Shown piece by piece: positions 1 to 56,198 of a stretch of 64,000 nt of DNA. Below the pieces are notes generated by a model that saw only the letters and a program-made list of their open reading frames with translations, did no database searches and was not told the DNA's origin. Location: NCBI GenBank assembly GCA_032718475.1, contig JAUCBJ010008361.1:1-64000 (forward strand), written 5' to 3'. The stretch comes from Nemertoderma westbladi. Taxonomy: Eukaryota; Animalia; Xenacoelomorpha. Within the stretch, counting starts at the first letter, position 1. Each line of letters starts with the position of its first letter. The position numbers and the translations under genes were made by a program.

Positions 1-423
1 TTGACTTCTCGCCCAATCGATCTGGTGTTCTTCCACCGCGATCAATAACCTAGTGAGTACGGCTGCAGGAAGGATGAGAAGGGGATCCGTATAAACCGCA
101 TCCGTCATCTCTGCTCCGCGCTCGGGTGTCAGCTCTACAGTATCCTCACTACTGGAGCTGCTGGGCCGCTGAGGAATAAGTTCTTGACTAGCGGGTTGTT
201 GCTGTTCCGCTGCTTCTTGGTCCCGTTTGACCTGAGCTCGAGTGCCTATGATAGACCTACGATGTTGGACCAGCCTAGGTTCTTTTATTACTACTGGAGG
301 GATGACTTTCCTCACAGTGGGAGGTGAACTGAACTTACGACCAGACGGTTGTACGTCTCTATCTGAGTCGCAGATAGTTACATCTAATAAACTGTCTGAC
401 AGGTTCTGCTTAGTATCAGACAT
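1..423 (-). CDS. N-terminal part of Gag, copy A (partial)
   Basis: ATG at 423; nearly identical to the start of ORF 8739-13760 (MSDTKQNLSDSLLDVTICDSDR...); continues beyond position 1. Confidence 0.85.
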   Translation of the reverse strand, partial: MSDTKQNLSDSLLDVTICDSDRDVQPSGRKFSSPPTVRKVIPPVVIKEPRLVQHRRSIIGTRAQVKRDQEAAEQQQPASQELIPQRPSSSSSEDTVELTPERGAEMTDAVYTDPLLILPAAVLTRLLIAVEEHQIDWARSQ

Positions 424-2670
424 GACTATGTATACCGTTGAATGTCTACTGCTGTATTACAGTCTGAGCAAGTCTAGTAACTCAGTATTAACTGCTAGCC
501 TAGTAATTAATTACCGGTACTGCTACTCAGTGTAGCGTGATATATAATATATTAGAACACCGGTATGCTTATGGTATATATAACTATATAAGTATTATTA
601 CAGACTAGGTTTATCACAGAATACCGGTATAATTTTAGCACAAATATATATAAATATATAATAGGCCTATCGGGAATACCGGTATACAGCTTACAGTTTG
701 TAGTATATATAATTCTAGACTAGAATTAATTACAAGTACCGGTATAATTTCAGCCTAAATTTATAGAAATAAAGATAATAGGCCTATCGTAAATACCGGT
801 ATATCAATTATTTTAAATAATTGAATTTCTGAATTTTAGGGTTACTTTGTTACTTTACTTACTTTATTACCGTTATTTGAGCAGTAGTCCAACTGATATT
901 GAGACCTAATGGTTGTATGGTAGGCCTACTATTTATAAATCGTTAGATTTGATTTATAATATATATATACCCGTTTTAATGGGTTTTGTCAATGTTTGAA
1001 ATAAATGTTATTATTTCTGGGGTAATCACTACACAAAGCGGTACGCTTTCAGTGAAGTGTTACGTACAGGACACTAAAACAAATGATTCTAATTTACCTA
1101 AGTTACTTAATACTACAAATTACGTACGATTCGGGTTGAGATTACAATCTCTAAATAAACACAAAAATTTACAAAAACACAAAATACGAATTTTTAGGGT
1201 AATTTTACAAGAAGTCTACAAACCAGCCTAACAAAGGGTTAGAAAACTGGTTATTACAACGGACAGGGTACTGCGGTTATTTGAAAATAATACGTAGTAG
1301 TAAATACACTGCGTTGTCCAGATAGGAAAATACCACCGCCTGACGACCTATAGCCGTATCGCTATAGGTTCTACGTTATGTATCACGGAGTGTTCCTACC
1401 TAGAAGTTAATAGAGCTAATCGAACGTGCCTATTAACCACTTTACAACACAAATATAATGCCTACACTAATTACTTTCGGAAAGCACTGTACACTAAACC
1501 CTAAATTAGGTACGAGTACTTGTACAACAGATAATCAGTAGTTAAATATACTTGAACAGCTAAAAGAACCACGGCATCTGCTGGAGTGACCGATGCACAA
1601 AATCACCAGTCTTTACCTACGCCAAGCAGCCCGTGTAGTACCGGGGTTAATTTAACTATAGCGGTATGTATAACAAACACAATTATTGTAGGAACAAACT
1701 TGGGGAATGAATGTTGCGGATAATCGCATAAACTCTGAATAATAAATATTACGCTACGCGTACAAACCACTCAAACAAAATGCAGACCGAACACTGACAG
1801 ACTACTATCAAGCCTAAACAAACTACGGTATATGCAGACTCCGAAATAATTAGGTAGTATGCGTTCTAACCCAGTAGTACGACTTATTCTTTAATTGGGG
1901 GTTTACCTTACAGCATTCGCTGCCCCTACTTCCTAACCGTTCTTTATCGGACAAGTGATCTACACACGCTGCAATCCGCTCAGGCCTAATAACAGCCAGA
2001 CAACTATCCAGCCTACAAATTATCTAAATAAAATTATACGCTACCCGTACAGACTTACACAAACAAAGTACAGACTAAACGATGGCAGACTACTCTCAAG
2101 CCTAAATAAACTACAGGACATGCAGACTCCGAAATGATTAGGGAGTATGCGTTCTAACCCAGTAGTACGACTTATTCTTTAGTTGGGGGTTTACCTTACA
2201 GCATTCGCTGCCCCTACTTCCTAACCGTACTTAATCGGACAGGTGATCTACACACACTGCAATCCGTTCAGACTTAACAGCAATCAGACAACAGCTCAGC
2301 CTACAAATTGTCTGTACAATCTGATCAGGCTTACACGTCTTCTGTTCAATACTGGCCTACAAACAAATAAAACTTGACAGAAATAAGTAAAATCTCAATA
2401 AAAAACCAGGGCGGCCGTTCCCTGATTAAGTATTAAGACCTACCGGTATACAACAATCAAATCGAATAATACTAATGTACTTATACGGGAAGTACCGGTT
2501 AGGACAGTTAGGCCTACGGACCTACAGAAGTACCGGTTCTGGCAGTTGGACCTACGGACCTACGGCAGTACCGGTTCTGGCAGTTGGGCCTACTGACCTA
2601 CAGATGTACCGGTTCAGGTTTACCGGTTGACCGGTACTTTCAACTTTATTGCTTACTGCAATAAAGAAGC

Positions 2671-2682
2671 TATATCCTTTAA
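2671..2682 (-). promoter_or_regulatory. PBS-position sequence of A, complementary to its own LTR
   Basis: Plus-strand TATATCCTTTAA abuts the LTR end and is the exact reverse complement of TTAAAGGATATA at 3477-3488; no TGG. Confidence 0.75.
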
Positions 2683-3989
2683 TGTTCGCGCTTTCAGACC
2701 TTTGGCAGTTTAATCCGCCAAATTAAGATGTCTTCTAGATATTAAATCGCTTTTTAGCCTATGACAAGTATTTGATTCACTACACTAGTCGAAACCAATC
2801 TGTGCGCGATCATTCACCCGCTGGATATTCCCGGGAGATTGGGTTCGACGGTTTAATTTTATTGCTATGTAAGCCTAATGTATTATTCGACTGACAGTAT
2901 TATATAATCTCTGACAATATTATTCACCTTCGGGAATATTAACAGTTCCTTTAGGACGTGGCGCTTTATCTATATAAACAGAGTTATGACTTAAACTACT
3001 CACAACGATATGGCTTAATTATAATTCACATATATGGCGCATTCTTTAGGAATTGCTTCTTTAACAGACTCACTCATACACAATGCTGCACAATACTGCA
3101 CACTAATCTGCCAATCTTCACTGATTTTAGTCACATATAAAAGGAACACAGACTGACTCATGTAGGGTCTATCAAATAACATTAGATTCACTTCAAACCA
3201 CTTTAACATAAGTCACAATCGTTATTGGTAACCTTTCTCTCTTACCTTCGGTATATCAAGAATATTGGGTTTTCGGGGTTATTTCTCGTTATTCCAATAT
3301 AATAATTCATCAACAAATATAATGAATAACCGACAACAAATAGCAGTATACAGTATTGATTGAGCAGGTAAATTTTAGCAGTTTCAGCAGTTATTAAAAG
3401 CCGTGTGTTCAGCAGTATTACGAAATTGCAGTGATTCCATGAGAGATATTTAGCGAGCAGTGAGATATTCAAGGAGTTAAAGGATATATGTCCTTATAAT
3501 TAAACCTACTAGTGTTGAGCTAAAAAGCAGAAAGCACAAAACACTACAAAGCCGTTCTTTCGTGGCTTTGAAAAACTCGTGACTACTGCTCTATACGAGG
3601 ATACCAACTACCCTTATTCCACGAAGCTCCCGTTCAACACAGAGAAAGAGCAGTGAGATAGGAAAATTTCAGTTCAGTAGCTCTGTGATAGGTCAAAATC
3701 AAAGCTAACTCAAATTCTATTGGCAGATACAGAAAGCTGCAACGTGGCAATATCAGCCGTTAGCCGTCGTCATGGTAGCGACACTGTTTTCAAGAGTATC
3801 GAGCTTTTTACGTCATGAAATTGCAGATTATGTCCTCTAAAGTACAAATACAGTTCAAATACAGAAGAAATGACTTTTATGTCCTCTAAAACACCAGTAC
3901 AGCAAGGACACGGCCTTTATATGCCTGGCAAACCAACTACAGAGTACTTTAAGGGAAAATAACCGGTTAATGACGCAAAAGCTTTTACA
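2683..3989 (-). repeat. 5' LTR of copy A (1307 bp)
   Basis: Homologous to LTRs 5255-6481 and 16821-18047; TG...CA ends. Confidence 0.92.
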
Positions 3990-5254
3990 GGCTGTTGGGT
4001 TTGTGGGACAATAACCCTATTCCAGTAAAGGATTAGACCATCGGTTAATGAAAGTTCACCTCGAATCAATTTGAACTTTTTCTAAAACGGAGGATATACT
4101 GAAAATAATTTTGGATTAATTCGATAAGTTTCTTGTAGTTTGAAGCATCCTGTGCTGCTTGCTACACCCAGTTCCTCGAGTATGTAATCGTTAATTCGAG
4201 GTGTTATGTCATCGAATTTAACACACATAGCAGCGATATTAAAGTTACAGCCAATGATGGATTTCCCTTTTTGCCATTTGACTTTGAATTGGTAACAGGG
4301 TTGCATATCACGTTTGATCCGCTGTTTTCATTCTGATCGACTGAGTAGTTATTAAATAGTGTGACTAAAGGTCTGTGAACTGTCACAACTGTAAATAAAG
4401 GAAGGCCCAATAAGTATATGCGATATTTCTGGATTGCATATCGGATCGCGCAGCATTCCAGTTCTATTGTTGTGGTTGCACCAATGCATTTTTCACCTTC
4501 ACGGAATGTGGTTGGGGGTCCACATGAAAGTATTACAGGTACACAATAAATCCCGGAGGGGTGCTGCAGATGTGCTCATTTTAATGGAAAAATTACTAAA
4601 GATTTCATGGATTTATTATATTTTAAGTCAAACTGTATTTTTCTGTTGATTGTAACCGAGTTCGAGGGAGAAAGAAATTTAAGGACGCTACTGATCTAGT
4701 ATTATATTTATGTATTTTTATTTTTTCTTGAAATAAAGATGTGATTAAAAGGTTGTTATTTATTGTTATTTATGTCCCACATTAATTTTGCTACTTCAAG
4801 TTTGTAAATATTTTTAACGGTAGTATGTTTATTTGTTTATATATTGGATTTGAATGTGACTGATAATGGCTAAAAGTGATGGCTCTTACAATTTTGTTTG
4901 TTTTGACTCGAATTGGTTGTATATATTAGTTGTGAGTATTGCCCCATGATATACCGTATTGTATGTATGAATGAATAAGTGAAAAATAAAGTAATTTTAG
5001 TAATTCTGTGCGTGGAATCTGTCTGTCAATCTGTCTGTCAGAATGTAAGACAGACAGACAGACAACCAACCGACCGACGGACAGACTAGATTCCACCACA
5101 TATTAAAACTGACATCAGAAATGCAATCAGCAACCCCGAAAACCCCTGTAAATATAATTTTAGCTCGGTATTGTGCTTCCTTCATGTCAGTCACTATTAA
5201 CCAACCAGACACCATACAGGTACGGTAGTTTTGCGCGGAATGGTTTTAACATTA
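3990..5254. repeat. Part of an inverted segmental duplication (paralog of 27114-28423)
   Basis: Near-identical reverse complement of 27114-28423; the ORF track shows matching spurious ORF pairs (4204/27994, 4434/27728, 4997/27153). Confidence 0.9.
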
Positions 5255-6481
5255 TGTAAAAGCTTTTGCGTAATTAGCCGGTTATTATCCCCGTAAAGTA
5301 CTCTGTGGTTGGTTTACCAGGCATAAAAAGGCCGTGTCCTTGCTGTACTGGTGTTTTGGAGGACATAAAAGCCATTTCTTCTGTATTTGTACTTTAGAGG
5401 ACATAATCTGCAATTTCGTGACGTAAAAAGCTCGATACTCTTGAAAACAGTGTCGCTACCATGACGACGGCTAACGGCTGATATTGCCACGTTGCCCCAT
5501 AGCCCTGCTTTCTGTATCTGCCAATAGGATTTGAGTTGGTTTTGATTTTGACCTATCACAGATCTACTGAACTGAATTTCCTATCTGTATGCTCATTCTC
5601 TGTGGTGGGTGAGATCTTTGTAGAATAAGGGTAGCTGGTATTCTTATAGTTATTCTTATCAGTTTTTAGTGTTGTTGGTGATTCTAAGCCAGGAAGAACG
5701 GCTTTAGCCTTACACTAGTTGGCTTAATTATAAGGACATATATCCGTTATCTGCATTTATCATAACATAACACACCATACCTAATCAAACAACCTGTGCA
5801 TACTTTTATATTGTTATACTGCTATTTACTGTCGGTTCTTCATAATATGGTTGATGAATTATTATATTTGGAATAATGAGAAATAACCCCGAAACCCAAT
5901 ATTCTTGATATACCGAAGGTAAGAGAGAAGGGTTACATATAACAATTGTGACATATGTTAAAGTGGTTTGAAGTGAATCTAATGTTATTTGATAGACCCT
6001 ACATGATTCGGTCCGTGTTCCTTTTATATGTGACTAAAATCAGTGAAGATCGGCAGATCAGTGTGCAGTATTGTGCAGCATTGTGTATGAGTGAGACTGA
6101 TAACGAAGCATTTCCTAAAGAATGCGCCATATATGTGAATTATAACTAAGCCATATCGTTGTGAGTAGTTTAAGTCATAACTCTGTTTGTATAGATAGAG
6201 CGCCACGTCCTAAAGAAACTGTTAATATTTCCCGAAGGTGAATAATATTGTCAGAGATTATATAATACCATCAGTCGAATAATACATTAGGCTTACATAG
6301 CAATAAAATTAAGCCGTCGAACCCAATCTCCCGGGTATATCCAGCGGGTGAATGATCGCGCACAGATTGGTTTCGACTAGTGTAGTGAATTAAATACTTG
6401 TCATAGGCTAAAGGTGATTTATTATCTAGAAGACATCATAATTTAGCGGGTTAAACTGCCAAAGGTCTGAAAGCGCGAACA
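5255..6481 (+). repeat. 5' LTR of copy B
   Basis: TGTAAAAGC...GCGAACA; direct repeat of 16821-18047; CCAAT at 5521 and AATAAA at 6302, both conserved in A and C. Confidence 0.96.
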
Positions 6482-6492
6482 ATAACGGATAT
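6482..6492 (+). promoter_or_regulatory. PBS-position sequence of B, complementary to its own LTR
   Basis: ATAACGGATAT is the reverse complement of ATATCCGTTAT at 5740-5750. Confidence 0.75.
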
Positions 6493-6549
6493 CGCTTCTT
6501 TATTGCAGTAAGCAATAAAGTTGAAAGTACCGGTCAACCGGTAAACCTG

Positions 6550-6675
6550 AACGGTACATCTGTAGGTCAGTAGGCCCAACTGCCAGAACCGGTACTGCTG
6601 TAGGCCCGTAGGTCCAACTGCCAGAACCGGTACTTCTGTAGGTCCGTAGGCCCAACTGTCCTAACCGGTACTTCC
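6550..6675 (+). repeat. About 37-bp tandem repeat in the leader (ACCGGTAC...TAGGYCC), about 3.5 copies
   Basis: Visible in A and B, reduced in C. Confidence 0.7.
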
Positions 6676-6850
6676 AGTATAAGTACATTAGTATTATTCG
6701 ATTTGATTATTGTATACTGTAGGCTGCCAGGGGAATAGGGATTGATCACCCCTCATTCTTTTGTATAGTTTACTTGTTTCTGTCAAGTTTTATTTATTTG
6801 TAGGCCAGTATTGAGCAGAAGGCGTGTAAGCCTGCTCAGATTGTACAGAC

Positions 6851-7425
6851 AATTTGTAGGCTGAGCTGTTGTCTGATTGCTGTTAAGTCCGAACGGATTG
6901 CAGTGTGTGTAGATCACCTGTCCGATAAAGAACGGTTAGGAAGTAGGGGCAGCGAATGCTGTAAGGTAAACCCCCAACTAAAGAATAAGTCGTACTACTG
7001 GGTTAGAACGCATACTACCTAATCATTTCGGAGTCTGCATGTCCTGTAGTTTATTTAGGCTTGAGAGTAGTCTGCCATCGTTTAGTCTGTACTTTGTTTG
7101 TGTAAGTCTGTACGGGTAGCGTACAATATTTATTTAGATAATTTGTAGGCTGGACAGTTGTCTGGCTGTTATTAGGTCTGAACGGATTGCAGCATGTGTA
7201 GATCACTTGTCCGATAAAGAATGGTTAGGAAGTAGGGGCAGCGAATGCTGTAAGGTAAACCCCCAACTAAAGAATAAGTCGTACTACTGGGTTAGAACGC
7301 ATACTACCTAATCATTTCGGAGTCTGCATGTCCTGTAATTTATTTAGGCTTGATAGTAGTCTGTCAGTGTTTGGTCTGCATTTTGTTTGAGTAGTTTGTA
7401 CGCGTAGCGTAATATTTATTATTCA
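6851..7425 (+). repeat. Two about 289-bp tandem leader modules with a structured core
   Basis: Units start at 6851 and 7140; homologous pairs in A (about 1740-2310) and C (about 45760-46330). Confidence 0.85.
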
Positions 7426-8738
7426 GAGTTTATGCGATTATCCGCAACATTCATTCCCCAAGTTTGTTCCTACAGTAATTGTGTTTGTTATACATACCGC
7501 TATAGTTAAATTAACCCCGGTACTACACGGGCTGCTTGGCGTAGGTAAAGACTGGTGATTTTGTGCACCGGTCACTCCAGCAGATGCCGTGGTTCTTTTA
7601 GCTGTTCAAGTATATTTAACTACTGATTATATGTTGTACAAGTACTCGTACCTAATTTAGGGTTTAGTGTACAGTGCTTTCCGAAAGTAATTAGTGTAGG
7701 CATTATATTTGTGTTGTAAAGTGGTTGATAGGCACGTTCGATTAGCTCTATTAACTTCTAGGTAGGAACACTCCGTGATACATAACGTAGTACCTATAGC
7801 GATACGGCTATAGGTCGTCAGAAGGTGGTATTTTCCTATCTGGACAACGCAGTGTATTTACTACTACTTATTATTTTCAAATACCGTAGTACCCTGTCCG
7901 TTGTAATAACCAGATTTCTAACCCTTTGTTAGGCTGGTTTGTAGACTTCTTGTAAAATTACCCTGAAAATTCGTATTTTATGTTTTTGTAAATTTTTGTG
8001 TTTATTTAGAGATTGTAATCTCACCCGAATTGTACGTAATTTGTAGTATTAAGTAACTTAGGTAAATTAGTATTATTTGTTTTAGTGTCCTATAAGTAAC
8101 ACTTCACTGAAAGCGTACCGCTTTGTGTAGTGATTACCCCCAGAAATAATAACATTTATTTCAAACATTGACAAAACCCATTAAAACGGGTATATATATA
8201 TTATAAATCAAATCTAACGATTTATAAATAGTAGGCCTACCATACAACCATTAGGTCTCAATATCAGTTGGATTACTGCTCAAATAACGGTAATAAAGTA
8301 AGTAAAGTAACAAAGTAACCCTAAAATTCAGAAATTCAATTATTTAAAATAATTGATATACCGGTATTTACGATAGGCCTATTATCTTTATTTCTATAAA
8401 TCTAGGCTGAAATTATACCGGTACTTGTAATTAATTCTATTCCAGAATTATATATACTACAGACTGTAAGCTGTATACCGGTATTCCCGATAGGCCTATT
8501 ATATATTTATATATATTTGTGCTAAAATTATACCGGTATTCTGTGATAAACCTAGTCTGTAATAATACTTATATAGTTATATATACTATAAGCATACCGG
8601 TATTCTAATATATTATATATATCACGCTACACTGAGTAGCAGTACCGGTAATTAATTACTAGGCTAGCAGTTAATACTGAGTTATGGGACTTGCTCAGAC
8701 TGTAATACAGCAGTAGACATTCAACTGTACACATAAGC

Positions 8739-11700
8739 ATGTCTGATACTAAGCAGAACCTGTCAGACAGTTTATTAGATGTAACTATCTGCGACTCAGA
8801 TAGAGGCGTAGAACCGTCTAGTCGTAAGTTCAGTTCACCTCCCACTGTGAGGAAGGTCATCCCTCCAGTAGTAATAAAAGAACCTAGGCTGGTCCAACAT
8901 CGTAGGTCTATCATAGGCACTCGAGCTCAGGTCAAGCGGGACCAAGAAGCAGCGGAACAGCAACAACCCGCGAGCCAAGAACTTACTTCTCAACGGCCCA
9001 ACAGCTCCAGTAGTGAGGATACTGTAGAACTGACACCAGAACGCGGAGCAAAGATGATGGATGCGGTTTATTCGGATCCCCTTCTCATCCTTCCTGCAGC
9101 CGTACTCACTAGGTTATTGATCGCTGTGGAAGAACACCAGATCGATTGGGCGAGAAGCCAGCGTTCAACTAGAGATAGTTATGCTGGATACACAAGGGAA
9201 GAACTGAAGTCCATGGTCGAGTCGCAATGGAACTTCCCCGGACCCGGACTCCCGTTTGATTTATCAGAAGCTGCCTGGGAAGACATACACCGGATGGGAG
9301 TAGCCAAGGAAACCATCGATCCCGCTGTGTGGAAGAGGTCCGCAGCCGGATACGCACAGGGATTCTTCAGCTCTATGGAGCGAGTAAAAGGACAACTGTT
9401 TCAACAACCACAAGGACCTCAAGAGCAGGGACAACTGCTTTATCAAGTGAGAGAAAGAATTCTACGAATCAGGCTAATATTATCGGCCTTTGAAGAGGCT
9501 TCTAAACGAAGGCAAGACACGTCGTTGCAAGTTGCCGTAAAGACTTGGTTTCAAAGGGTAAGTCTCCAGGTTCAAGGAACAGCTCAGTGGAAAGCTCAGC
9601 TGGAGGAGCGCTCAACCCATGGAGAATCAACAGACGCTACTTTTTCCCAAGTGGAAAGTGAAGCGACGGCAGAGAAACCGCATAAGAGGGATGCCATTGA
9701 CATCTATCTGTCAGACTATCAACGTTTTTTAGGTGATGACGAGTTGAGGAGAAGGTTAGAGGGACTTAGCCCTAATAGTGAAGGAACCAAGCTTGTGTTG
9801 GATGCCATCGATGTGGAAATGAGGGCTGCGAATCAGGCTAAATTTGATGAACAACTCCGCATCACACGAGTCCAAGAAGAACAAGTAAAGAAAAAACGTA
9901 TAGAAGACAGAAAGAAAGCAGCAGTGGTAGCTGCAGAAGCAGAAAGAAAGGCGGCAGCGGCCAAGGCAAAAGCGGCAGAGGCAGCGGCCAAGGCAAAAGC
10001 GGCAGAGGCAGCGGCCAAGGCAAAAGCGGCAGAGGCAGCGGCCAAGGCAAAAGCGGCAGAGGCAGCGGCAGAGGCAAAAGCGGCAGAGGCAGCGGCAGAG
10101 GCAAAAGCGGCAGAGGCAGCGGCAGAGGCAGCGGCAGAGGCAAAAGTGGCAGAAGCAGAAAGGAAAGCGGCTGACGAAACCACCCAATTAGAATTGGAAA
10201 ACATTCAGGAGAATCAAGACTGCATAAATAAACAGTTAGCAGCTAGTAATATGCAGATGATGAATCGATCTACTCCCAAAAGACAGGGATATACATCATC
10301 TGAGGAAGGCGATACCACCGATACTGAAGGCAAGGGAAATAGATCTCGTCTAAGTAGACGTAAAAGAACATTCCACCGTCAGAAATTGCCTGATTTGCCT
10401 CCAGCTGTTAGAAGGCAACTAAATAACACCAACTTAGGTAGTACAGAGCCCACAGACCAAATAATTAAAATAGAAAGACTCCCTACTATAGTAGATGAGC
10501 CTGAAATAATTAGGCCTGTTCTTGAAATCACCCCTTCGGTGATAGACACACCTGTGCTCCCTGAAACTACCTCTAAATTCCCTCTGCATAGCACTAAGCT
10601 ACCTGTGCCCCGTAGAACTGCCCAGGAGACAGTTCAGGTCCTGGACCCCGAGCAAAATATTCCTGATTTGTCGCCCGTTGTCCCTCGTCCGCTCGCTACA
10701 ACGTTGGCGACTCCCGCTTCTGCGGTCGAATGGGTGGACGAGAGACGGCGGGGGATGGATCTCCTGCTCGGGCAGATGCAGGAGACTGTTCAGCAATTCA
10801 AGGGCACAGTAAGGGAAAGTAGACTAGAGTTGCAAGAAGTGCAGCAAAATATCGCGCTAGAACGTGATAAATTAGTAAATTTACAAAAGGGTATACCACC
10901 ACCCCTTGTAACAATGTGTCAACCTGTTAGGTCTGAAGTATCTCATGCGCAAGGTGTGGAGCCTACACGCATCTATACTGCTAGCGAAGTAGAAACTCCT
11001 ATAGTGAACCCTATTAAGGGTAATTATAAACCTGTTGATAATGATATTCCCTATAGACCGGATCATAATCCGAGAAATTTATATACCGATAACTCGATAT
11101 TAAATAACACGATGGCCCAAGAAAGTTTTACGCGTCAAATGGCTAGAACCGAAGCCCGGCAAGCGGTAAAGGTGGGAGAGATCGTCAAGTTCAATGGAGA
11201 TGAGATGAAATGGTTACCTTTTAATGAATATTACAAAGATAACATACAGAACTCTGTGCTATCTAATGGAGAGAAACTTAGATTCCTCATCGAGTGCTTG
11301 GAAGGATCTCCCAAGTCAATGGCGTTAAAATTTATTGGACATCCAGATGGATTAAGACAAGTTTGGGATACACTAAACATCAGGTATGGTAATAGGACTA
11401 ACATAGCTAGGTATTTATATGTGAAATTAATGGCGCCCCGAAAGTTTCTTAGCAGCGGGATTATAGAGTTTTCCGATGAGATTCAGGAGATCTGTAGACA
11501 ACTAGATTGGTTAGGTAAGTCTCATGAATACCAGAATTCTATGGTTGTAGGAGCCTTAGCATCTACTTTGCCCAAGGGTGGAGTAGGTACACGCTGGGAC
11601 AAGAAGGTGTTATATATGATGGAACAACAACAACGAGACCCTACCATGGCTGATCTCATGTCATTCTTGGATAGCGAGGTGAAATTACAGCTCATAAAGC

Positions 11701-13760
11701 AGTCCAGAGAGAAGACAGCGGAAAGTAAGGTAAGTGAGAAACCCGTTTCTAGGAGAAGGGTAACACCAGTATGTTATACCGACGACGGTGAAAGCCAAAC
11801 TTCTCAAGGAGAGGACAGCGGGAAAGACACTGACAGATCTTATTATGTCAATAAAATGCCTAAAGATCAGGTAAGTAAATCCGAGTCTCGACCCAATGAC
11901 AGAAGGGAACCGGTACAAAAAACCCTTCCTACGTCTCCTAAAAGAATTCAGGTGAGAAAGCCCGAGGAAAGAACAAGTGTGCACCACATAGCACAGGTTA
12001 AAGTAAGTAACATCAAGCCGAAATGTGTGCTGTGCGACGGGCCCCACCGTTTAAATGCGTGTGATAAATTCCTGAGGAAATCACTAAAGGATAGACGTGA
12101 AGTCATGTGGGATAAGTTGTGTTATAATTGCCTCAGACGAGGACACCAACGGCGAACCTGTTACTCCGACGCAAGGTGTGCAAAGTGCGGCGCAAAACAT
12201 CATATCTTGTTGCACACGGAATTCGAACGAAACAGCCCGAGTCAGGTAAGTGAGTCCGAACTACATGTCCAATTCAGTGATGTGAACGACACTGATCAAT
12301 CTGAGATGGAAGGATTCTATACGGACGAGTTCTCCGACCAAAACGAATCCTGTTACCTAATAAACACCACCGCAGTGTATCGAGCACTCATGCATGAGAA
12401 AGACACAGACAGCGACCTTACCTTAACTACTTCTGATCAACAACCATCTTGGAAAGCGCCAACTTCCAATATAGGAATCCGAGAATTTCCTGTAGTCCAG
12501 TTACGGGTCCACGGACCTCAGAAGAGCTATATAGTAAATGCCCTCCTGGACTCCGGTAGCACAGGAACATTCATCGATAAAGAACTAGCCGAAGTCATCT
12601 TTGCTGGACAACCCAAGTTCCGAACCAAGCTAAACATGTCAGGGATCATGCAGGTTTGGAATTCTACTGTAGCTGCCGACTATTATATAGGTGAGTTGTC
12701 CACTCCACAGGATAAACTAGGAGAATACAGTATAAGGTCAGTAAAAATGGTGGCAATAAAGAACTTCGCTACCACCCAAGTGGAACCTTATAATTGGGAC
12801 GAAGATGATCATGCCCAACAACTTAACATCCCTAGATTCGACACCGATTATCCTGGAGTACAAATATTAATCGGTCAAAACGCGCATGAGGCGCTGGAGA
12901 CATTAGAGAAACGACCTACTCAACCGCAACCACTTCAGACCTATGCGGTAAGAACTAGAGTAGGTTGGTACCTTACTGGACCTTCCCGTAGAACACTCAG
13001 AGAAAGACTGCTTCAAGATCGCGTCTGCCAGGTGAGTGAATGGGAAGACGATACTAGTGAGGGAGACGACCCAACTGAGGGAACACCACATTCCTCAGAT
13101 AATGACAATCTTAACTCCAATGTAGATCAATGGAGATATTGCCCCAAGACGATGAATATAACTGACATCGCTTCCAGAGGAGCAACTCCTCAAGAACTGA
13201 CAGATACTACAGACCGGTTAGGTGAACCCGGCTTCCTGAGTAAGGAGGATGAATGGCCTCCCCATCTTACTCCGACTGAGATTAGACCAGCCAAGGGAGC
13301 GGAGAAAGTCAAACCTAAAACCCGGACGGGTGGATCGGAGTTATTTGAACCCGGGATAGATCTGTCGGTATTACAGATTGCCAGGGACGACGCCGTGGAT
13401 CTGGACCTCCCCACCGCGAGTGGATCCTTCATGAAGATCAGAGAGAGCGATTGGAGCTCTGGAACATCAGACGTCTCGCAGGGACTCTCACCTCTCCTGC
13501 GGGGAGCGACGGACCACTATAGCTCCTGGAATCGGCTTTGTAAGGCCGTCGTGTACTTAGAGCGATGTTTCTATCGTCACTATTCCAGGACGAAGAGGAA
13601 ACCTGGAATTGTATTCGGGATGCAGCGACTCAATCGCCCAGCTGGTCGTTTGTGTTTACCGGAAGGGAATGGAGGACTCTCCGGAAACTGTGGAAGGCAA
13701 GATTCTCTTCCCACGACTACCTCCCTAATCCTTCAAACATCTAGGGACTCCATAACGTAA
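8739..13760 (+). CDS. BEL/Pao Gag plus aspartic protease with short Pol relics; no RT or integrase (1673 aa)
   Basis: DUF1759-like capsid region (KFNGDEMKW...EKLRFLIECLEG...LNIRYG); three BEL-type Zn knuckles (CVLCDGPHRLNAC, CYNCLRRGHQRRTC, CAKCGAKHHILLH); protease ALLDSGS and ILIGQN; relics DIASRG, YSSWNRL and RPAGRLCL; no YxDD motif seen. Confidence 0.93.
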   Translation: MSDTKQNLSDSLLDVTICDSDRGVEPSSRKFSSPPTVRKVIPPVVIKEPRLVQHRRSIIGTRAQVKRDQEAAEQQQPASQELTSQRPNSSSSEDTVELTPERGAKMMDAVYSDPLLILPAAVLTRLLIAVEEHQIDWARSQRSTRDSYAGYTREELKSMVESQWNFPGPGLPFDLSEAAWEDIHRMGVAKETIDPAVWKRSAAGYAQGFFSSMERVKGQLFQQPQGPQEQGQLLYQVRERILRIRLILSAFEEASKRRQDTSLQVAVKTWFQRVSLQVQGTAQWKAQLEERSTHGESTDATFSQVESEATAEKPHKRDAIDIYLSDYQRFLGDDELRRRLEGLSPNSEGTKLVLDAIDVEMRAANQAKFDEQLRITRVQEEQVKKKRIEDRKKAAVVAAEAERKAAAAKAKAAEAAAKAKAAEAAAKAKAAEAAAKAKAAEAAAEAKAAEAAAEAKAAEAAAEAAAEAKVAEAERKAADETTQLELENIQENQDCINKQLAASNMQMMNRSTPKRQGYTSSEEGDTTDTEGKGNRSRLSRRKRTFHRQKLPDLPPAVRRQLNNTNLGSTEPTDQIIKIERLPTIVDEPEIIRPVLEITPSVIDTPVLPETTSKFPLHSTKLPVPRRTAQETVQVLDPEQNIPDLSPVVPRPLATTLATPASAVEWVDERRRGMDLLLGQMQETVQQFKGTVRESRLELQEVQQNIALERDKLVNLQKGIPPPLVTMCQPVRSEVSHAQGVEPTRIYTASEVETPIVNPIKGNYKPVDNDIPYRPDHNPRNLYTDNSILNNTMAQESFTRQMARTEARQAVKVGEIVKFNGDEMKWLPFNEYYKDNIQNSVLSNGEKLRFLIECLEGSPKSMALKFIGHPDGLRQVWDTLNIRYGNRTNIARYLYVKLMAPRKFLSSGIIEFSDEIQEICRQLDWLGKSHEYQNSMVVGALASTLPKGGVGTRWDKKVLYMMEQQQRDPTMADLMSFLDSEVKLQLIKQSREKTAESKVSEKPVSRRRVTPVCYTDDGESQTSQGEDSGKDTDRSYYVNKMPKDQVSKSESRPNDRREPVQKTLPTSPKRIQVRKPEERTSVHHIAQVKVSNIKPKCVLCDGPHRLNACDKFLRKSLKDRREVMWDKLCYNCLRRGHQRRTCYSDARCAKCGAKHHILLHTEFERNSPSQVSESELHVQFSDVNDTDQSEMEGFYTDEFSDQNESCYLINTTAVYRALMHEKDTDSDLTLTTSDQQPSWKAPTSNIGIREFPVVQLRVHGPQKSYIVNALLDSGSTGTFIDKELAEVIFAGQPKFRTKLNMSGIMQVWNSTVAADYYIGELSTPQDKLGEYSIRSVKMVAIKNFATTQVEPYNWDEDDHAQQLNIPRFDTDYPGVQILIGQNAHEALETLEKRPTQPQPLQTYAVRTRVGWYLTGPSRRTLRERLLQDRVCQVSEWEDDTSEGDDPTEGTPHSSDNDNLNSNVDQWRYCPKTMNITDIASRGATPQELTDTTDRLGEPGFLSKEDEWPPHLTPTEIRPAKGAEKVKPKTRTGGSELFEPGIDLSVLQIARDDAVDLDLPTASGSFMKIRESDWSSGTSDVSQGLSPLLRGATDHYSSWNRLCKAVVYLERCFYRHYSRTKRKPGIVFGMQRLNRPAGRLCLPEGNGGLSGNCGRQDSLPTTTSLILQTSRDSIT
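9945..10165 (+). repeat. 27-bp coding repeat (AAAKAKAAE)n inside Gag of B
   Basis: Tandem GCAGCGGCCAAGGCAAAAGCGGCAGAG units; C has a differently expanded Ala-rich tract at this position. Confidence 0.9.
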
Positions 13761-15412
13761 CAACATATGGAGTGGGTGTGTGACTCTATTATTTTATATT
13801 ATTTTATTATTTTTATATTTATGTATGTATTACTACGTAATTTTATTATAATTGTTTTATTTAATTTAGTAGAATCTTATTTAGCGATTATTTAGTAGAA
13901 TAGTGCAATATATTCATGTTTATTGCGTACGTAATTACGTATATATTATATTTAGTGCGACGGCAAGAAATAATTCTTTTCCTTCTTCCTTACTGTCCGT
14001 ATTACATTACAAATACGTAACTACAGTAAGATGAAATGTCCGTACTTATTAAAGTACAATAAAGCCACTACTATATTAAAGTATTATTGGTAGGCAGAGT
14101 ATTAGGAATGCAAAGTTCAGATCCTCGTGTCTCAGCTAAACCAAGCTCTGGGTAGACCTTGGAAACGACTTGCCTCTTCACACTGACATTGCTTCGTGCG
14201 ATATTGCTCTCATACCGTGTATAATAATACATATAGTAGCGTGATGTCCCTCTAACAGTAGCGTAAAACGCACATAAATCTGTTAAACCTTTTGACCATC
14301 TGTAATTCTAGTCGATTAAGATATCGCGGCACCCACCGATATACTTGAAAGACAAAATTCTAGAATCAGTGGTTAACGTCCCCAGACAAGTTCTGGAATA
14401 AATCGGTGCCCATCTCAAATATTAATTATTTAATATTTGCAAATCTAATAAATCAAAATCTGTAAAATTCAGATCCTTCAACAATTCTAGTCAATTAAGA
14501 TATCGTAGCATTTACCGATATTCTTAAAAAGACAATTGTCATAGAATTAAGGATCTTGTGTCCCCAGACATGTTCTAGAATCAAAATATGTCAATTTAAT
14601 TATCAAATAATAAAATTTCAGGGAATAAATTTAAATTCATGCCTTTTAATGAATTTAATAAATTGCCATTTTTACGCAATTTATAACATTCCCAAAATTC
14701 CATTAATTAATAGATCAAGGGAGCGGAGATTTATCTTATTATGAGTATGAGTGTGCGAAGTCTCCCAAACATAGTCAATAGCCGATAAAATTCATAAAGT
14801 CATGTATAAAACAGGACATTGACTATTAAAGAATTACTATTAAATAACATCCCAGATCTGTATGCATTGGAATTACCCTAATTCTACCGCTAGCTTTACA
14901 TAATGTCACCATAGCAACAACCACGCTAGAATTAGAATTGAGTTAAGAGAACAATAGAAAGCTTGTCCCATTGAATAACATAGGGAATAAATAGTGCACT
15001 GATAGTATCCAAGGATACATAATAATACAGTGACATTCTGGAAGGCATTGACTAACGGACAAGTGACCCGAGTGTGTGTAATTTGTGACAAGTTGTGTGT
15101 GTGGTATTTGTGATGTTATAGGCGAATGTTACTACTAAGGTGTGTTTACAGTAGCGAGTCGCAATTGTGAAAGTAACCCTAACTCTCCAGTAAGAACCTG
15201 AGGTGTATCTAAGCCTTTGGGACGGACAGTCGAGTGACTTGTGCCGGTTGTCGTTGTCGTTGTGCGGCTACGTCGTTGGCGAAAGTACAGCGGCGACGAC
15301 ACATCGGCGCTGAGGATCTCGTACTGTCCGGGGGTTGATTGGGGTAAGCAGCGACGCCCGCTCGCCTAAATATAAACTCATTATAATATGGATAAACTCA
15401 TATATAGCAGAT

Positions 15413-16742
15413 ATGACGGAGTTGATAGAAGATGGTCTTAGTATCGGGGAGCGATATACTCTACTTTTACAAGCGTTTGTTGATAGCTTAATACGCGGCG
15501 ACGTTAGTCCAACTGCTGCGGAGGACGATGGTCGTTATATCGAACCGCCAATGTCCCAAGAGCAGCTCGCGCGAGTTGGACTATAGAAAATTCGCTGCTC
15601 GATATACGCAGCGTAATGGTACGTATATGGTCTTCTTAACTACTGGTCATCCTATCGATTTACATAATACGGACTATGTCGACTATATATCCTGCCCAGC
15701 GGAGTCGGAACCATAAACTGAAATTCGAATGCGAAAATTCTATTCGAAATCGACTCGAAAGAAAAGACACTAAAGAAACAAATAAACGCGGTAACTCCAA
15801 CGTATATTTGGAATTCTTGATAGAAGCATTGTAACAACAAATAAATATCACCCGCGTTTCCCCTACCAGACGTGCGTCTTTGGTATTATTATGATAAATG
15901 CCCTAGACCCAACTAATAAACGGAAAGACATAAACATCCACGGAAACGTTGTGTTAAACACAGTTGTGCTCGTTATATTTACTGGAGTTTCGAGCGAAAC
16001 TTGTTTGACGTATCACCTATGCTCACTCGGCTCGAACGATCCTGGAGTAAACCTACGATCAGAGTCCCGGAATACTCGGTCAAACCTCCTCATTCCTTAG
16101 TTGGACCTCAGACCTGCGATCCTGGTGGTGTCGCGGATCCTCGCGGACTGTATTCACTGTTCAAAGATCTAGTGCTACCCTAACAATTAATCGGTAACAC
16201 TCCGACAGTGATTTCTAGCTAGCCGCCCATCTTACCTAGCCGGATTGTGACGCGGACACCTAATATCACTATCCAACCGTATGGTCGTTCCCGTTTAACG
16301 CGATACAACCCTTCATCAAGGTGAAGGAGAGTGTTGTACGAAACGAGTTAAACGCTATTCTATAAAGAACAAAAAAGAAACCTGCGTTTGTTCAGATAAA
16401 CGTAAGTTATAACAGTAAGTCCAATCGATAAACGAATTGGCCTTATCTCAGTTCGATTGGGAAATCTCGAATCTCTAAGAAGATATCAAGCTTAGAAAAC
16501 CCTATTCTCTGCGAGAGTTTTGGATGAACGTATCCAGCTACGAGCGGAGGAAAATCAGCTCGAGGAGAAGCATATCGAAACGGCGGATAACCCGACCATA
16601 ATCCTACACCTTCTGATGCAATCATATTGCACCCTTCACCCAGGATTTATAGCCCTCCTAGTAAAGTGGCTCGCCCCAAAGAGAAAAGGACTCTTGCTAG
16701 CCTCAAAAACTGCGTAAACGCCGTCTGCGTAAGAAAGACTAA
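15413..16742 (+). pseudogene. Decayed second ORF of copy B
   Basis: N-terminus (MTELIEDG...) and last about 150 nt align with C 53448-54896; frameshifts near 15570 and 15685; middle not alignable. Confidence 0.75.
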
Positions 16743-16810
16743 CTGTTTAGAGTATCTTTATATTTTAGAAACTGTGATTTGTTATATTTTATAGACTTAA
16801 ATCCCATTTT

Positions 16811-16820
16811 CTGGGAGCGG
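16811..16820 (+). promoter_or_regulatory. Short polypurine tract
   Basis: CTGGGAGCGG directly before the 3' LTR; identical at 54965-54974 in C. Confidence 0.7.
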
Positions 16821-18047
16821 TGTAAAAGCTTTTGCGTAATTAGCCGGTTATTATCCCCGTAAAGTACTCTGTGGTTGGTTTACCAGGCATAAAAAGGCCG
16901 TGTCCTTGCTGTACTGGTGTTTTGGAGGACATAAAAGCCATTTCTTCTGTATTTGTACTTTAGAGGACATAATCTGCAATTTCGTGACGTAAAAAGCTCG
17001 ATACTCTTGAAAACAGTGTCGCTACCATGACGACGGCTAACGGCTGATATTGCCACGTTGCCCCATAGCCCTGCTTTCTGTATCTGCCAATAGGATTTGA
17101 GTTGGTTTTGATTTTGACCTATCACAGATCTACTGAACTGAATTTCCTATCTGTATGCTCATTCTCTTTGGTGGGTGAGATCTTTGTAGAATAAGGGTAG
17201 CTGGTATTCTTATAGTTATTCTTATCAGTTTTTAGTGTTGTTGGTGATTCTAAGCCAGGAAGAACGGCTTTAGCCTTACACTAGTAGGCTTAATTATAAG
17301 GACATATATCCGTTATCTGCATTTATCATAACATAACACACCATACCTAATCAAACAACCTGTGCATACTTTTATATTGTTATACTGCTATTTACTGTCG
17401 GTTCTTCATAATATGGTTGATGAATTATTATATTTGGAATAACGAGAAATAACCCCGAAACCCAATATTCTTGATATACCGAAGGTAAGAGAGAAGGGTT
17501 ACATATAACAATTGTGACATATGTTAAAGTGGTTTGAAGTGAATCTAATGTTATTTGATAGACCCTACATGATTCGGTCCGTGTTCCTTTTATATGTGAC
17601 TAAAATCAGTGAAGATCGGCAGATCAGTGTGCAGTATTGTGCAGCATTGTGTATGAGTGAGACTGATAACGAAGCATTTCCTAAAGAATGCGCCATATAT
17701 GTGAATTATAACTAAGCCATATCGTTGTGAGTAGTTTAAGTCATAACTCTGTTTGTATAGATAGAGCGCCACGTCCTAAAGAAACTGTTAATATTTCCCG
17801 AAGGTGAATAATATTGTCAGAGATTATATAATACCGTCAGTCGAATAATACATTAGGCTTACATAGCAATAAAATTAAGCCGTCGAACCCAATCTCCCGG
17901 GTATATCCAGCGGGTGAATGATCGCGCACAGATTGGTTTCGACTAGTGTAGTGAATTAAATACTTGTCATAGGCTAAAGGTGATTTATTATCTAGAAGAC
18001 ATCATAATTTGGCGGGTTAAACTGCCAAAGGTCTGAAAGCGCGAACA
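16821..18047 (+). repeat. 3' LTR of copy B
   Basis: Direct repeat of 5255-6481, followed by TSD CATTA. Confidence 0.96.
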
Positions 18048-18425
18048 CATTAAGTTTTTTCAATTTATAAAAAATTTTGAATTTTTTTTACAAAATTCCT
18101 AATTATTAGAAATAGAAAACGAAAATACAAAATGTGGCCGAATAATATGATGAAAGTGAACATGCTGGGCTGGTTCCAAAAAATGTGGTATCAGAAAATA
18201 AAAATGGAAAATTACGTAGGAATAGTCTTTTTAGTGTAATTTTTAAAATCTCATGCAAGCCGCTAGAGGGCGCCAAAAGTTTGTTTTCTAGTTTTGATAT
18301 ACTTTTGATGATTCTCTATTCGTTGGTATATCGTTTTCTATGAATTTTTCAACCACATTGGAGACCGTGGAGTACAAAACCGTGAGGTTGTTCGAAGAAA
18401 ACCGTTGGGGGGCTACCCCACTTAA

Positions 18426-18957
18426 GGGGAGGGGGGGGGGGGGGACACCATTTTGGTCGAAAATATGACGGAATTATTTTTATGATCTATTATAACGCAC
18501 GATTAAATGGTGTTTCCAAATCTGAAATCCGCTATTGAATAGCTCTTTTAGTTTTTAAGTTATAACAATTTCCATTTAGGGAATCCTATTGAAATTACTA
18601 TTACTATGTATAATGAAAGGTCGATTATCTCCAAATATTTTTTTCATGAAATTGCCAACTTCAAAACCCTACTACCTCTACAAACTTCCTGTGGGTGTCT
18701 AGATAGCCACCCTGCTTAAAATTATCAGACAACTTTTTGAAATTTGTTCTTAATAAAATTTAATACTATTTATAACAAACCTAAAAAATTAGTATAAATT
18801 TGCAGCGCCACCTAGCGGTGCAGAATTATTTTCACAAAATTTCGCCTGATAGGTATGTTACCCCATCTTTGATCTATCATCTAAAAATTTCATGTGATTA
18901 TCATGTTATTCACAACTGTAAAAGCCTTAGGGTTTTAAGTGCAACCAAGTTTTTTTG
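18426..18957 (-). mobile_element. Partial Kolobok-like non-autonomous DNA transposon
   Basis: TTAA at 18422-18425 then G-run/ACACCATTTT terminus; homologous to 62266-62980 and 26256-26880. Confidence 0.7.
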
Positions 18958-19554
18958 ACCGAAGTTTGCGACGTTTGCGAAATTCGCGAAGAATTCGTCA
19001 GTTTCTGTGCCCTAATGGTTTCGTGACGAAACAATCAAATATTACACACTTAACACACACGAACTAATTCAATGTGTGTATTAGTATGCCTGAATAATTA
19101 AATAGAAATTAAATTAATGAACGCTATTACAACATGAAATCTACGGAATCAATACAGAACACACGCACACTACTGAATTTAAAAATTTATATAGATTGCA
19201 ACTTATATTTGGCCACCTTTTAATGGGTGACTAATTTAATTATTCACCCCTATATATTTGTAGCCTTTTTAATTTGTGCCTCTAATTGAATCAAACATTA
19301 AACTAAAATATATGTCACAATATTGGTCTGTCGGTAGCTGGTCAATGAGTTTCTCATAAATTTGTTAATTAGTCGCTGTTCATTCATTGAACATTTGAAC
19401 ACGTGTTGCTCGAAGACCCCACAACGTGTTAATTATTGCTAGCTAGCTATATTTATTTTCTTTTGATAATAATTTCCTATAATAAACTAATAATTCATAA
19501 TTTCCTATTATTTATATCTTTATTTAATATTTTAATCGTTATTGGTTTACTCAC

Positions 19555-20211
19555 TGTTAGGTGTAGTGTAGTTTAGGAGCTCCTCGTATGCTTCTCCTAA
19601 TTGTTTCACTGAGAGAGAACAAGGGTAATATCGAGCATGGGCAATAAAACCTGGGAAGGCTTGTGGAGCGTTGTAAATACGTTTTCCTAAATGCAGATTC
19701 ACAGTGCTATCCAATGCTGCTCTCTGGGTATTTGGAGTGTCAAACTCCATTCTTCTGTAATCGGCACTACCAACTCTTCGACTGTAGAGAAATGTTTGTT
19801 TATTAGCAGCACTCACACCAACCGCAACCAAATACCATTCGTTGGTCGTGATGGCGTTGGGAAATAATTTAACTGCTGACGATACTGGATTATAGAGCAA
19901 TTGATGAGCATCAGCAGGCCAAATCCATAGATTTGTTCCATAGTTTACAGCGTCGCCAAACTCAAATATTGGGCCACCTATACCAGGCGTATTGATAAAG
20001 GCCAACATTGTAAGAGATTCTGAGGTTAACTCATTTTGATCATGTGCGATTGATATGTAACCGTTAGTGAAGTCTATCGCTTGGTTTTCTACACCCCCTG
20101 GTCCGGGTACGTAGCTTAATGTTCCAACAATTTCACCATTGTGAGAATCTAGTCTATCATTTCCACCATTATTCAAGTTCAAAACCCACCATGATGTGTA
20201 GTTACATTGAT
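19555..20211 (-). CDS. Host exon: LamG/concanavalin A-like (Laminin_G_3/pentraxin-like) domain
   Basis: Acceptor TTTTAG and donor GTGAGT; 657 bp, phase 1-1; GPGGVENQAIDF, NEWYLVAV, LHLGKR, FPGFIAHARYY; paralogous to exon 32629-33312. Confidence 0.8.
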
Positions 20212-20857
20212 CTAAAATAAAATATCGAATAAATTAAAATGAGATATAATAGTAAGGAGGTAGCTTATATGAATATATTCTAAATATTCAGTAAAAATTT
20301 TCGACTACTATAATTATTATTGAATACATTTATAAACAGATATATATATATATATACCAGTAGGCTGATAATAGTCGGTAATGCTAAATGTAAGCATGAG
20401 CATATCCAACAAACATTGTTAGATGTAATGAATTACTAATAAGATCCCCAAGAAAGCTCAAATTAAAAACATTGTAATCAGGGCCTTCTAGAACATTTTG
20501 ACCGCTAAAATATATTTTGAACTAGCGATAAATACCAAGATGTTCCACGCGGTGGTGCCGGTAATATTTATATCCCAATTGAATGGGATAGTTTGCCTTC
20601 TAGAAAATAAAAGAAGTCAATATAGTATCAGAAACAAAGAAAAAGTAGCCAGTAAAAGTGGAAACGTGCTTTTTTGTTTGCGAATAAATGCACGAAATAT
20701 AATGCAAAACAAATATTGATTTATTCATTACAAAAACATGTAGCAACATTGCTCTCAATATAAGTGTACTAGAGGTATTGTTTTGTATTGGTATGGTATT
20801 ATAATTAAATAATAAAATAAAATAAATATTGTTGGTATGGTATGATGTTAAGCTTTG

Positions 20858-21793
20858 TGTTGCCGTTATCCCAACACCAGGGGGGAAAAACGCCGATGCT
20901 GGAGACGTGACTTTACAGACCACTGAGCCCCGGCCAGTCACCGGATATTGATTTTGGAGAAGGAATGATTTCTGAGATGCAGGGTTGCGGTTGAGAAAAA
21001 GCTGCATTAGTTGGATATACTCTTTAATGTAACTGAACTCTGTTGAACCTGGTCAACAATATTGAACCCTGTTGAACCCTGATTAAGAATAATTTTGGGC
21101 TTCCCCAAATCAATATACACCAAATATTCACAATAATTATACACGATAATATAAATCCCTACAGTATATTATTTAATTACCCACTGTTCGCTCAGATTTT
21201 AGCCTACCTAATGTTCCCCAGATTTTCCCTCGGTCCTAGTCTTAGTGCTGTAGTGTCGGTGTCGGTCGACCCTGTCACGTGTCCGTTCCACCCCTCACGA
21301 ACCCCGAAGGGAACGATCATCGAGAACCAGCACGGCTTGGCTAAGGGTCGGTCCAGTCGGTAGACTCTGTCGCGTATCCGTACCGCCCCTCTCGAACCCC
21401 GAAGGGATCGGTCATCGAGAACCAGTACGGCTTAGCTAGGAGTCTGTCGTGTCGGTGGACCCGTTCGCGTGTCCGTTCCACCCCTCACAAACCCCGAAGG
21501 GTTCGATAATCGAGAACCAGAACGGCTTGGCTAGGGGTCCGTCGGTTCATCGCAGAAACCCAACCACCTAGGCTTTCCGAGTCCCTTTCAGGCTCATAGT
21601 CGCTTCGGCAGCCGAGAAACTGCTCCGAACAGTCGGTAGGCCAGTAGAGTCTAGTCCTTTGTCTTTCGACCCCGTCGCGTGTCCGTTCCACCCCTCACGA
21701 ACCCCGAAGGGAACGATCATCGAGAACCAGTACGGCTTGGCTAAGGGGTCTGTCGTCGGTTCCCGTCGCAGATCCCGGTACAAGCAGTCAGCG
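20858..21793 (-). repeat. Truncated 3' LTR of D (936 bp)
   Basis: Direct repeat of 24121-25056 (offset 3263); fused to gag by a deletion at 21793/21794. Confidence 0.92.
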
Positions 21794-23682: not shown

Positions 23683-23870
23683 TGTAACGCCTCGTCGATA
23701 GCTAGATACGCGATGTCATAAAACAGTTCCTCGTGGGTATTGTACTCAGCTTGGACCACCCGAACGGTAATCCTGAATCGTCCGACGTTCGTTCCTTGTA
23801 CTTCAACTTCGACGTGCCAGATTCCTGGCTCAACTTGGATTATATCAATGGGTGTGATCGATACTTCCAT
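23679..23870 (-). CDS. Small 63-aa ORF upstream of D gag with ATGA stop/start overlap
   Basis: True ATG at 23870; its TGA overlaps the gag ATG; alternating hydrophobic beta-strand pattern. Confidence 0.4.
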   Translation of the reverse strand: MEVSITPIDIIQVEPGIWHVEVEVQGTNVGRFRITVRVVQAEYNTHEELFYDIAYLAIDEALQ

Positions 23871-54896: not shown

Positions 54897-54974
54897 CTGT
54901 TTAGAGTATTTTTATATTTTAGAAACTATGATTTTGTATATTTTATAGACTTAAATCCCATTTTCTGGGAGCGG

Positions 54975-56193: not shown

Positions 56194-56198
56194 CAACT

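Follow-up and report, generated by a model that had tools for sequence, protein, structure and literature searches.

Complementarity between primer-binding sites and their own LTRs suggests self-priming in BEL/Pao retrotransposons of Nemertoderma westbladi

Organization and coding content of the elements

The window analyzed here, a stretch of 64,000 nt from Nemertoderma westbladi, contains one LTR family present as three copies, designated A, B and C. Elements B (5255-18047, plus strand) and C (44235-56193, plus strand) are complete and each bounded by 5-bp target site duplications (TSDs). The 5′ LTR of B (5255-6481) comprises 1227 nt, its TSD (CATTA) occupies 5250-5254 and 18048-18052, and a short purine-rich tract, with its last base at 16820, comes before its 3′ LTR (16821-18047). 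The 5′ LTR of C (44235-45458, 1224 nt, TSD CAACT) is about 70% identical to the B LTR, and repeat comparison placed the 3′ LTR of C at 54975-56193. Since the LTRs of each pair differ only little, by 5 substitutions in B and by a single 5-nt indel in C, both elements are young. Element A lies on the minus strand; its 5′ LTR (2683-3989) has 1307 nt and TG...CA ends, and its internal part leaves the window at the left end. Positions 2-3350 of A and 5815-9160 of B are 95% identical. Contigs that align to the A-C LTR number 15,257 in a single public run, and the family is thus an abundant one.

Element D, also on the minus strand, represents a second BEL/Pao family that was absent from the original prediction for this DNA. 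Its 5′ LTR (24121-25730) comprises 1610 nt, is unrelated in sequence to those of A-C and has the TSD CAAAG, and its 5′-truncated 3′ LTR (20858-21793) is 99% identical to the 5′ LTR. The LTR pairs of B, C and D are 99-99.6% identical, with TG...CA ends and 5-bp TSDs.

Regarding the surroundings of the elements, A and B are arranged back to back, 1.27 kb apart, within one copy of another repeat (3990-5254, 18048-18960, 26256-28425, 62273-62980), which recurs twice in the window. C is inserted in a LINE-type element with the endonuclease on its left and the reverse transcriptase (RT) on its right (42282-44300 and 56139-56870), and an additional RT frame is located at 35207-37522. The frames 19547-20233 and 32573-33334 (minus strand) gave weak matches to Laminin_G_3 and are probably host exons. 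The region 34272-35108 consists of a 51-54-nt tandem repeat, whose minus frame yields a conotoxin-family Pfam line with no single stretch passing, likely a repeat artefact.

According to protein domain matches, B contains a frame for gag (DUF1759, Cys/His knuckles) and protease (8706-13760, plus strand), and C a frame of the same build (47621-51829, plus strand). In both, this frame continues into a short piece that belongs beyond RT/RNase H. D has a gag in two frames (21796-23715, minus strand) cut off by the 3′ LTR, with DUF1759 in 21796-22155. The E-values for DUF1759 were 2.5e-12 (B), 2.7e-12 (C) and 7.9e-11 (D). Comparison of the B gag-protease with longer proteins gave 21 matches among 2538 candidates, all of them with the Pao peptidase A17 domain (PF05380); these homologs are distant, with 22-26% identity where the query is mostly covered. 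When the homologous polyproteins were aligned to the window, gag and protease were followed by a piece about 550-570 residues further on, and neither these polyproteins nor domain searches within the window gave a match for RT or integrase in B, C or D. We therefore classify the elements as non-autonomous BEL/Pao LTR retrotransposons, the assignment of the A-C family and of D to BEL/Pao being based on the predicted proteins (gag, and in B and C also protease) and not on the primer-binding site (PBS) or an RT phylogeny. As they have no RT/RNase H of their own, the enzyme must come in trans, a point absent from the original prediction. C has an extra 3′ frame of 349 aa (53433-54896, plus strand), which is Cys/His-rich and shows only a weak zinc-knuckle match (E 0.027); broken remains of its counterpart are found in B at about 15300-16700.

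Pairing of the leader with the element's own LTR

The PBS of tRNA-primed elements starts with TGG. This triplet had been reported missing after the 5′ LTR of A, B and C, and it is indeed absent from the first 8 leader bases of all four elements (4/4, A-D). The leader sequences of A, B and C are complementary to a site within their own LTR, and all coordinates originally proposed for this pairing were correct. In B, the PBS (6482-6492, plus strand) is complementary at 11/11 positions to 5740-5750 (plus strand), the predicted self-primer, for which we infer an RNA start at or just before 5740 and a cut after 5750. In A, the PBS directly following the LTR (2671-2682, minus strand) is complementary at 12/12 positions to the 12-nt predicted self-primer at 3477-3488 (minus strand), with 2682 to 2671 facing 3488 to 3477. 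In C, the PBS (45459-45475, plus strand) pairs 9/9 through 45459-45467 with a perfect core at 44683-44691 of the LTR site (44674-44691, plus strand); with one bulged A, the pairing comprises 17 bases and reaches 44674. The PBS of C lacks this one A of its site and is thus an imperfect copy there. The 3′ end of the site lies 513 (A), 496 (B) and 457 nt (C) into the LTR. As claimed before, pairing halts at the LTR end, where A faces C, and in all three elements the base after the site is C, more precisely the site precedes CT.

The pairing is specific for the individual element, in agreement with the original prediction. The longest anchored complement in the own LTR has 12 (A), 11 (B) and 9 nt (C) versus 5-6 nt in the 5′ LTRs of the other elements, and for the flanks of the two 3′ LTRs the value is 4-6 nt. 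Duplex energies are -10.3 to -12.5 kcal/mol with the own site versus +0.3 to -7.6 kcal/mol between elements. Among 5000 shuffled LTRs, the observed length (offset 0-3) was matched by 7 for A, 6 for B and 164 for C, which leaves C weak when its contiguous core is taken alone; A and B, being 95% alike, are not independent.

In columns 1-9 of the core of A-C, Watson-Crick pairs occur in 27/27 cells, and sliding by 1-3 columns gives only 3-9/27. Four of the nine columns are variable, PBS positions 2-4, 7 and 9 being constant across A-C, and all 5 substitutions are mirrored on the other strand of the duplex (5/5), which bears out the claimed covariation of site and PBS as a count resting on three sequences, not as a phylogenetic covariation test. 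A and B are especially informative: the 27 nt ending at the site hold just two differences (-1 and -5), which lie opposite the leader differences +1 and +5. Within the first 60 leader bases, A and B differ at three positions, of which +12 has no mirrored partner. This position is paired in element A and mismatched in B, and at 6493 most of the contig depth carries the base A (301,557 of 340,477 in one public run), so that 11 nt is only a candidate primer length. None of the variants listed from public-run contigs (40 of 230) falls inside the core or the site. Taken together, the pairing is confirmed as a real and non-random feature.

The same own-LTR geometry is present in D, that is, in an unrelated BEL/Pao family. 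A 13-nt site in the D LTR (24345-24357, minus strand), again followed by C, is complementary at 13/13 positions to a PBS located after a 2-nt spacer (24106-24118, minus strand), a pairing that was reached by 0/5000 shuffles. D has no sister copy in the window, and it contributes geometry and no covariation comparison. Among the 2297 positions of the inner part of D, a 13-nt match occurs at just one further place, 42 nt downstream, where the PBS is repeated (24064-24076, minus strand); a perfect 12-bp inverted repeat with a 3-nt loop lies between the copies and overlaps the second one (whole arrangement 24064-24118, minus strand). This arrangement might have been left behind by aberrant primer copying or might represent a dimerization hairpin.

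Beyond the core, pairing is at background level, with ranks of 511/1285 (A), 149/1205 (B) and 200/1202 (C). Extended helices of about 30 nt upstream of the site in A and B appeared plausible in duplex folds, yet were no better than background; they also compete with a stable leader hairpin and were rejected.

Transcript geometry and predicted RNA folds

Predicted poly(A) signals were located in all four LTRs: AATAAA at 6302-6307 in B (plus strand, 180 nt before the LTR end), at 2858-2863 in A (minus strand, 181 nt) and at 45265-45270 in C (plus strand, 194 nt), and ATTAAA in D (minus strand, 171 nt before the LTR end and 54 nt downstream of the site). In 4/4 elements, the distance from the site down to the canonical signal is 54-614 nt, and from the signal to the LTR end 171-194 nt. 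With such a predicted signal downstream, the site may begin R but cannot end R. Upstream of the site, A-C have only rare signal variants, and D has none. No conserved TATA box is present 30 nt upstream of the site. TATA-like words lie inside or just before it (TATAAA at -12 in C, TATAAG at -21 in A and B, and at -35 and -59 in D) and would, if used, shift the start to a later position.

A boundary of sequence variation coincides with the predicted cut. A and B resemble each other over the roughly 45 nt that lead up to the site; past it their homology is lost for about 60 nt, and in B a hypervariable, G-poor segment (5751-5815, plus strand) begins right after the site. The homology between copies breaks 0-6 nt past the site, both for A versus B and in contigs of 4/4 public runs. 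These contigs, from four studies of which one possibly used the source sample, leave B at 5751, 5753 and 5756. The summed contig depth, which is not a copy number, is lower at 5626-5784 than in the downstream LTR. A boundary at this position would fit the end of a template, where strand transfer and end errors fall. The LTR of A itself (3350-3640) appears mosaic: R-U5 is about 95% like B, and the region around the site is unlike B. Upstream of the A site, two 50-column windows are nearer to C (0.86 and 0.71) than to B (0.76 and 0.39).

Several splice-like and processing-like motifs were also observed. A splice-donor-like AG/GT(A/T)AG, conserved in A, B and C, lies 167-230 nt past the site (5919 in B and homologous places in A and C), and CA/GTAAG is found in the loop of a leader hairpin just after the PBS (6508 in B and homologous places in A and C); the preceding TTTATTGCAG might also serve as an acceptor. 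Splicing from the 5919-type donor to a leader acceptor could remove U5 and the PBS. No joint from 5919 to the leader was present among the joints listed (15 of 17) for run X4, which is RNA only by guess. The leader hairpin 3′ of the PBS (6498-6520 in B, plus strand) is predicted to have 9 bp in A and B and 8 bp in C, and in all three this stable hairpin carries in its 3′ arm an AATAAA located just after the PBS (6513-6518 in B), which it could mask.

Folding over about 750 nt is a long-range prediction and thus weak evidence by itself. For A and B, the helix between site and PBS is predicted with P 0.76-0.97 for transcripts with a start 9-28 nt ahead of the site end (one case 0.38) and with P ≤ 0.31 for a start at least 31 nt ahead of it. 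In the folds examined, the loss from 31 nt onwards is due to R sequence occupying the site. This start-dependence favours an RNA start near the site in the modelled transcripts. The helix of C requires a start at least 14 nt before the site end and holds to 37-40 nt; it is fragile below, with P 0.05-0.88 for 11-12-nt starts. For D, P is 0.95-0.97 with a short tail, and the helix to the first PBS has P 0.04-0.11 for 13-15-nt starts when the second PBS copy is included. Adjacent to the PBS, the last 16 nt of U5 in A and B are predicted to pair with a motif 114-130 nt upstream (P about 0.9-0.99); in B this stem spans 6357-6478 (plus strand), with 6465-6478 facing 6357-6367. In C, the corresponding stem is the best local duplex, yet is absent from the ensemble, and D has a different U5 hairpin.

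Candidate priming mechanism and comparison with known systems

The best reading of these data, and one that we consider fairly probable, is Tf1-like self-priming in which the PBS is recopied from the primer; that the primer is in some way derived from the element itself we regard as highly probable. In the proposed mechanism, transcription would begin 11-13 nt before the 3′ end of the site (up to 17 nt in C), and the 5′ end of the RNA would fold back to the PBS, bridging 730-795 nt in A-C or 225 nt in D. RT/RNase H provided in trans by an autonomous partner would cut before the C that follows the site, creating a free 3′-OH, and minus-strand synthesis would extend from this freed 3′ end of the element's own RNA. 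During plus-strand synthesis the primer would be copied, so that a change in the LTR site would reappear in the progeny PBS. Such copying would produce mirrored changes without selection on both sides, would account for two mirrored changes already between elements that are 95% alike, and would explain how C, within a run of A, can be one base behind. The position of the poly(A) signal, the homology break after the site and the predicted U5 stem next to the PBS would all fit the Tf1 model. The earlier proposal that these BEL elements self-prime gains support from the predicted BEL/Pao proteins, the missing tRNA-type PBS, the mirrored pairing and the addition of D, all of them features of the sequence.

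A self-derived primer need not be the capped 5′ end of the RNA. It might also arise by a cut on both sides of the site, from the 3′ LTR copy, from a second packaged RNA or from a small RNA of the LTR site. Such origins would explain the mirrored changes equally well; both LTRs contain the site, the length of perfect pairing varies between 9 and 17 nt, and the missing TATA box at -30 and the downstream start implied by the TATA-like words also speak for them. On the other hand, a cut in the 3′ LTR would, from general knowledge, remove the R needed for strand transfer, the folds of A, B and D no longer contain the helix once upstream sequence is attached, and in A, B and C pairing beyond the core does not exceed background, which makes an uncapped primer rather unlikely. 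A primer formed by the 3′ end of an RNA at a poly(A) site or by splicing inside the LTR appears very improbable. Weak signal variants are present upstream of the site in A and B (ATTATA at -23) and in C (TATAAA at -12, AGTAAA at -38), but D has none, and in 4/4 elements the canonical signal lies downstream of the site and its distance from the LTR end is constant, a geometry that disfavours the poly(A)-end candidate. The splice-built candidate was rejected, as none of the GT/GC..AG junctions within the four LTRs yields a complement of at least 9 nt.

The PBS of a tRNA-primed element is reset to a single host sequence in each cycle. If a host tRNA fragment or small RNA were the primer and the LTR site a shield of the PBS or a circularization element co-maintained by selection, the variation of 4/9 core columns would be unexpected, as it also is for half-tRNA priming of the copia, Osser or Bianca type, which expects a family-constant PBS that pairs with an internal stretch of the tRNA. 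Moreover, A and B differ at two mirrored positions despite being 95% alike, and D would require one more RNA. Neither tRNA genes (ARAGORN) nor Rfam matches were found in the window. The constant PBS positions (2-4, 7 and 9) would agree with a host primer, and half-tRNA primers described for Ty1/copia elements in the accessible part of PMC6317226 show that the absence of TGG alone is insufficient evidence; overall, we hold priming by a host RNA to be improbable. Chance complementarity in AT-rich sequence can be practically dismissed: the contiguous core of C is reached by 164/5000 shuffles and the D 13-mer is AT-rich, but the exact register at the LTR boundary, the homologous site in three elements, the mirroring of every change and the 0/5000 shuffles for D speak against it.

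Cer7 of C. elegans reportedly codes for a tRNA-like primer of its own. In the accessible parts of the publications cited, Tf1 takes its own first 11 nt as primer once RNase H has cut (PMC7175516), about half of the Tf1 cDNA keeps the complete PBS in a DNA copy (PMC11042837), and self-priming of Tf1 is experimentally shown (PMC7175516, PMC5341516, PMC11042837). It has been proposed for Tj1 and other Tf1/sushi elements (PMC4600332, 10.1101/2022.12.06.519325), with a three-duplex "pretzel" around the Tf1-type PBS (10.1101/2022.12.06.519325); plant Tcn1 and copia TAR elements are predicted to use it (PMC6317226), again as far as these texts were accessible. For BEL/Pao, the ICTV describes host tRNA priming with a PBS of 18 nt for tRNA-Arg or tRNA-Gly and calls the replication poorly understood (PMC8742986). 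In the literature surveyed by title and abstract, self-priming was found for Ty3/gypsy and Ty1/copia only, with no link to BEL/Pao. The terms primer, PBS and tRNA did not occur when a BEL/Pao survey (PMC3118150) was searched for them, the Sinbad paper (PMC554778) gave only PCR primers, and the accessible parts of PMC5443660, PMC3601003, PMC6934838, PMC8220671 and PMC3286476 do not tie self-priming to BEL/Pao. Self-priming in BEL/Pao therefore has apparently not been described before, and the novelty, for which there is strong sequence evidence, would be a known priming mechanism in a superfamily described as tRNA-primed. Searches for relatives in other data gave no further copies: the LTR-end/leader pattern had 0 matches in metagenome and viral contigs, the B gag-protease had 20 pattern matches in metagenome contigs with 0 confirmed, and query P0001 had no match in viral contigs.

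Self-priming is already predicted in Ty1/copia (TAR) besides Ty3/gypsy, which would make BEL/Pao the third superfamily; should it hold for both of the unrelated families in this animal genome, all three LTR-retrotransposon superfamilies would have the mechanism. The window contributes a primer that is contiguous and shows five mirrored changes, a primer-PBS distance of unusual length and a second family, and the predictions are base-exact. A broader proposal, for and against which we see the scales about level, is that tRNA-independent self-priming is the regular mode in a broad BEL/Pao branch and evolved apart from Tf1/sushi, that BEL/Pao RNase H supplied in trans cuts a duplex spanning about 800 nt, and that the primer-PBS pair of each subfamily drifts freely. 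If true, subfamily-specific primer-PBS pairs may limit which copies prime or recombine together, BEL/Pao RNase H would be expected to have RNA-duplex cleavage activity, and the elements would presumably be independent of the host tRNA supply and of tRNA-fragment silencing at the PBS. Annotation tools demanding a tRNA PBS would miss such elements. Self-priming in BEL/Pao would also bear on whether self-priming or tRNA priming is the older mode, a question raised in the accessible part of PMC3601003.

The elements share with Belpaoviridae (PMC8742986) the LTRs, a DUF1759 gag with nucleocapsid knuckles, the protease, the purine-rich tract and the 5-bp TSD. Unlike Belpaoviridae as described by the ICTV, none of the four has an 18-nt PBS for tRNA-Arg or tRNA-Gly, and B (12.8 kb) and C (12.0 kb) exceed the given range of 4.2-10 kb although pol is largely missing (PMC8742986). 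They resemble Tf1 and Tf2 of Schizosaccharomyces pombe, Tj1 and Tf1/sushi elements in having no tRNA PBS and a segment of some 11 nt within the 5′ LTR complementary to the bases following the LTR, and Tf1 also in the U5 duplex adjoining the PBS that is predicted for A and B. The PBS of B starts with ATAAC like that of Tf1 in the available text of PMC11042837, which may be a coincidence. With respect to the "pretzel", the central duplex is found in the predicted folds of 4/4 elements, and the third duplex of Tf1, between the region 3′ of the PBS and the LTR, is not predicted, a local hairpin being formed instead in A-C. Further differences from Tf1 are the distance of 730-795 nt between primer and PBS in A-C, the lack of a detectable RT/RNase H in B, C and D, and a start and cut that in A-D we only infer. 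The predicted proteins match BEL/Pao polyproteins, and the elements are thus not members of Tf1/sushi, which are Ty3/gypsy chromoviruses. The closest parallel in the kind of evidence is provided by the plant Ty1/copia TAR elements (Houba, Osr-1) and the Tcn1 clade, for which, in the accessible part of PMC6317226, self-priming was likewise predicted from sequence only. These belong to a different superfamily and different hosts, but in the case of TAR, as proposed here for BEL/Pao, the prediction concerns a superfamily that is otherwise tRNA-primed.
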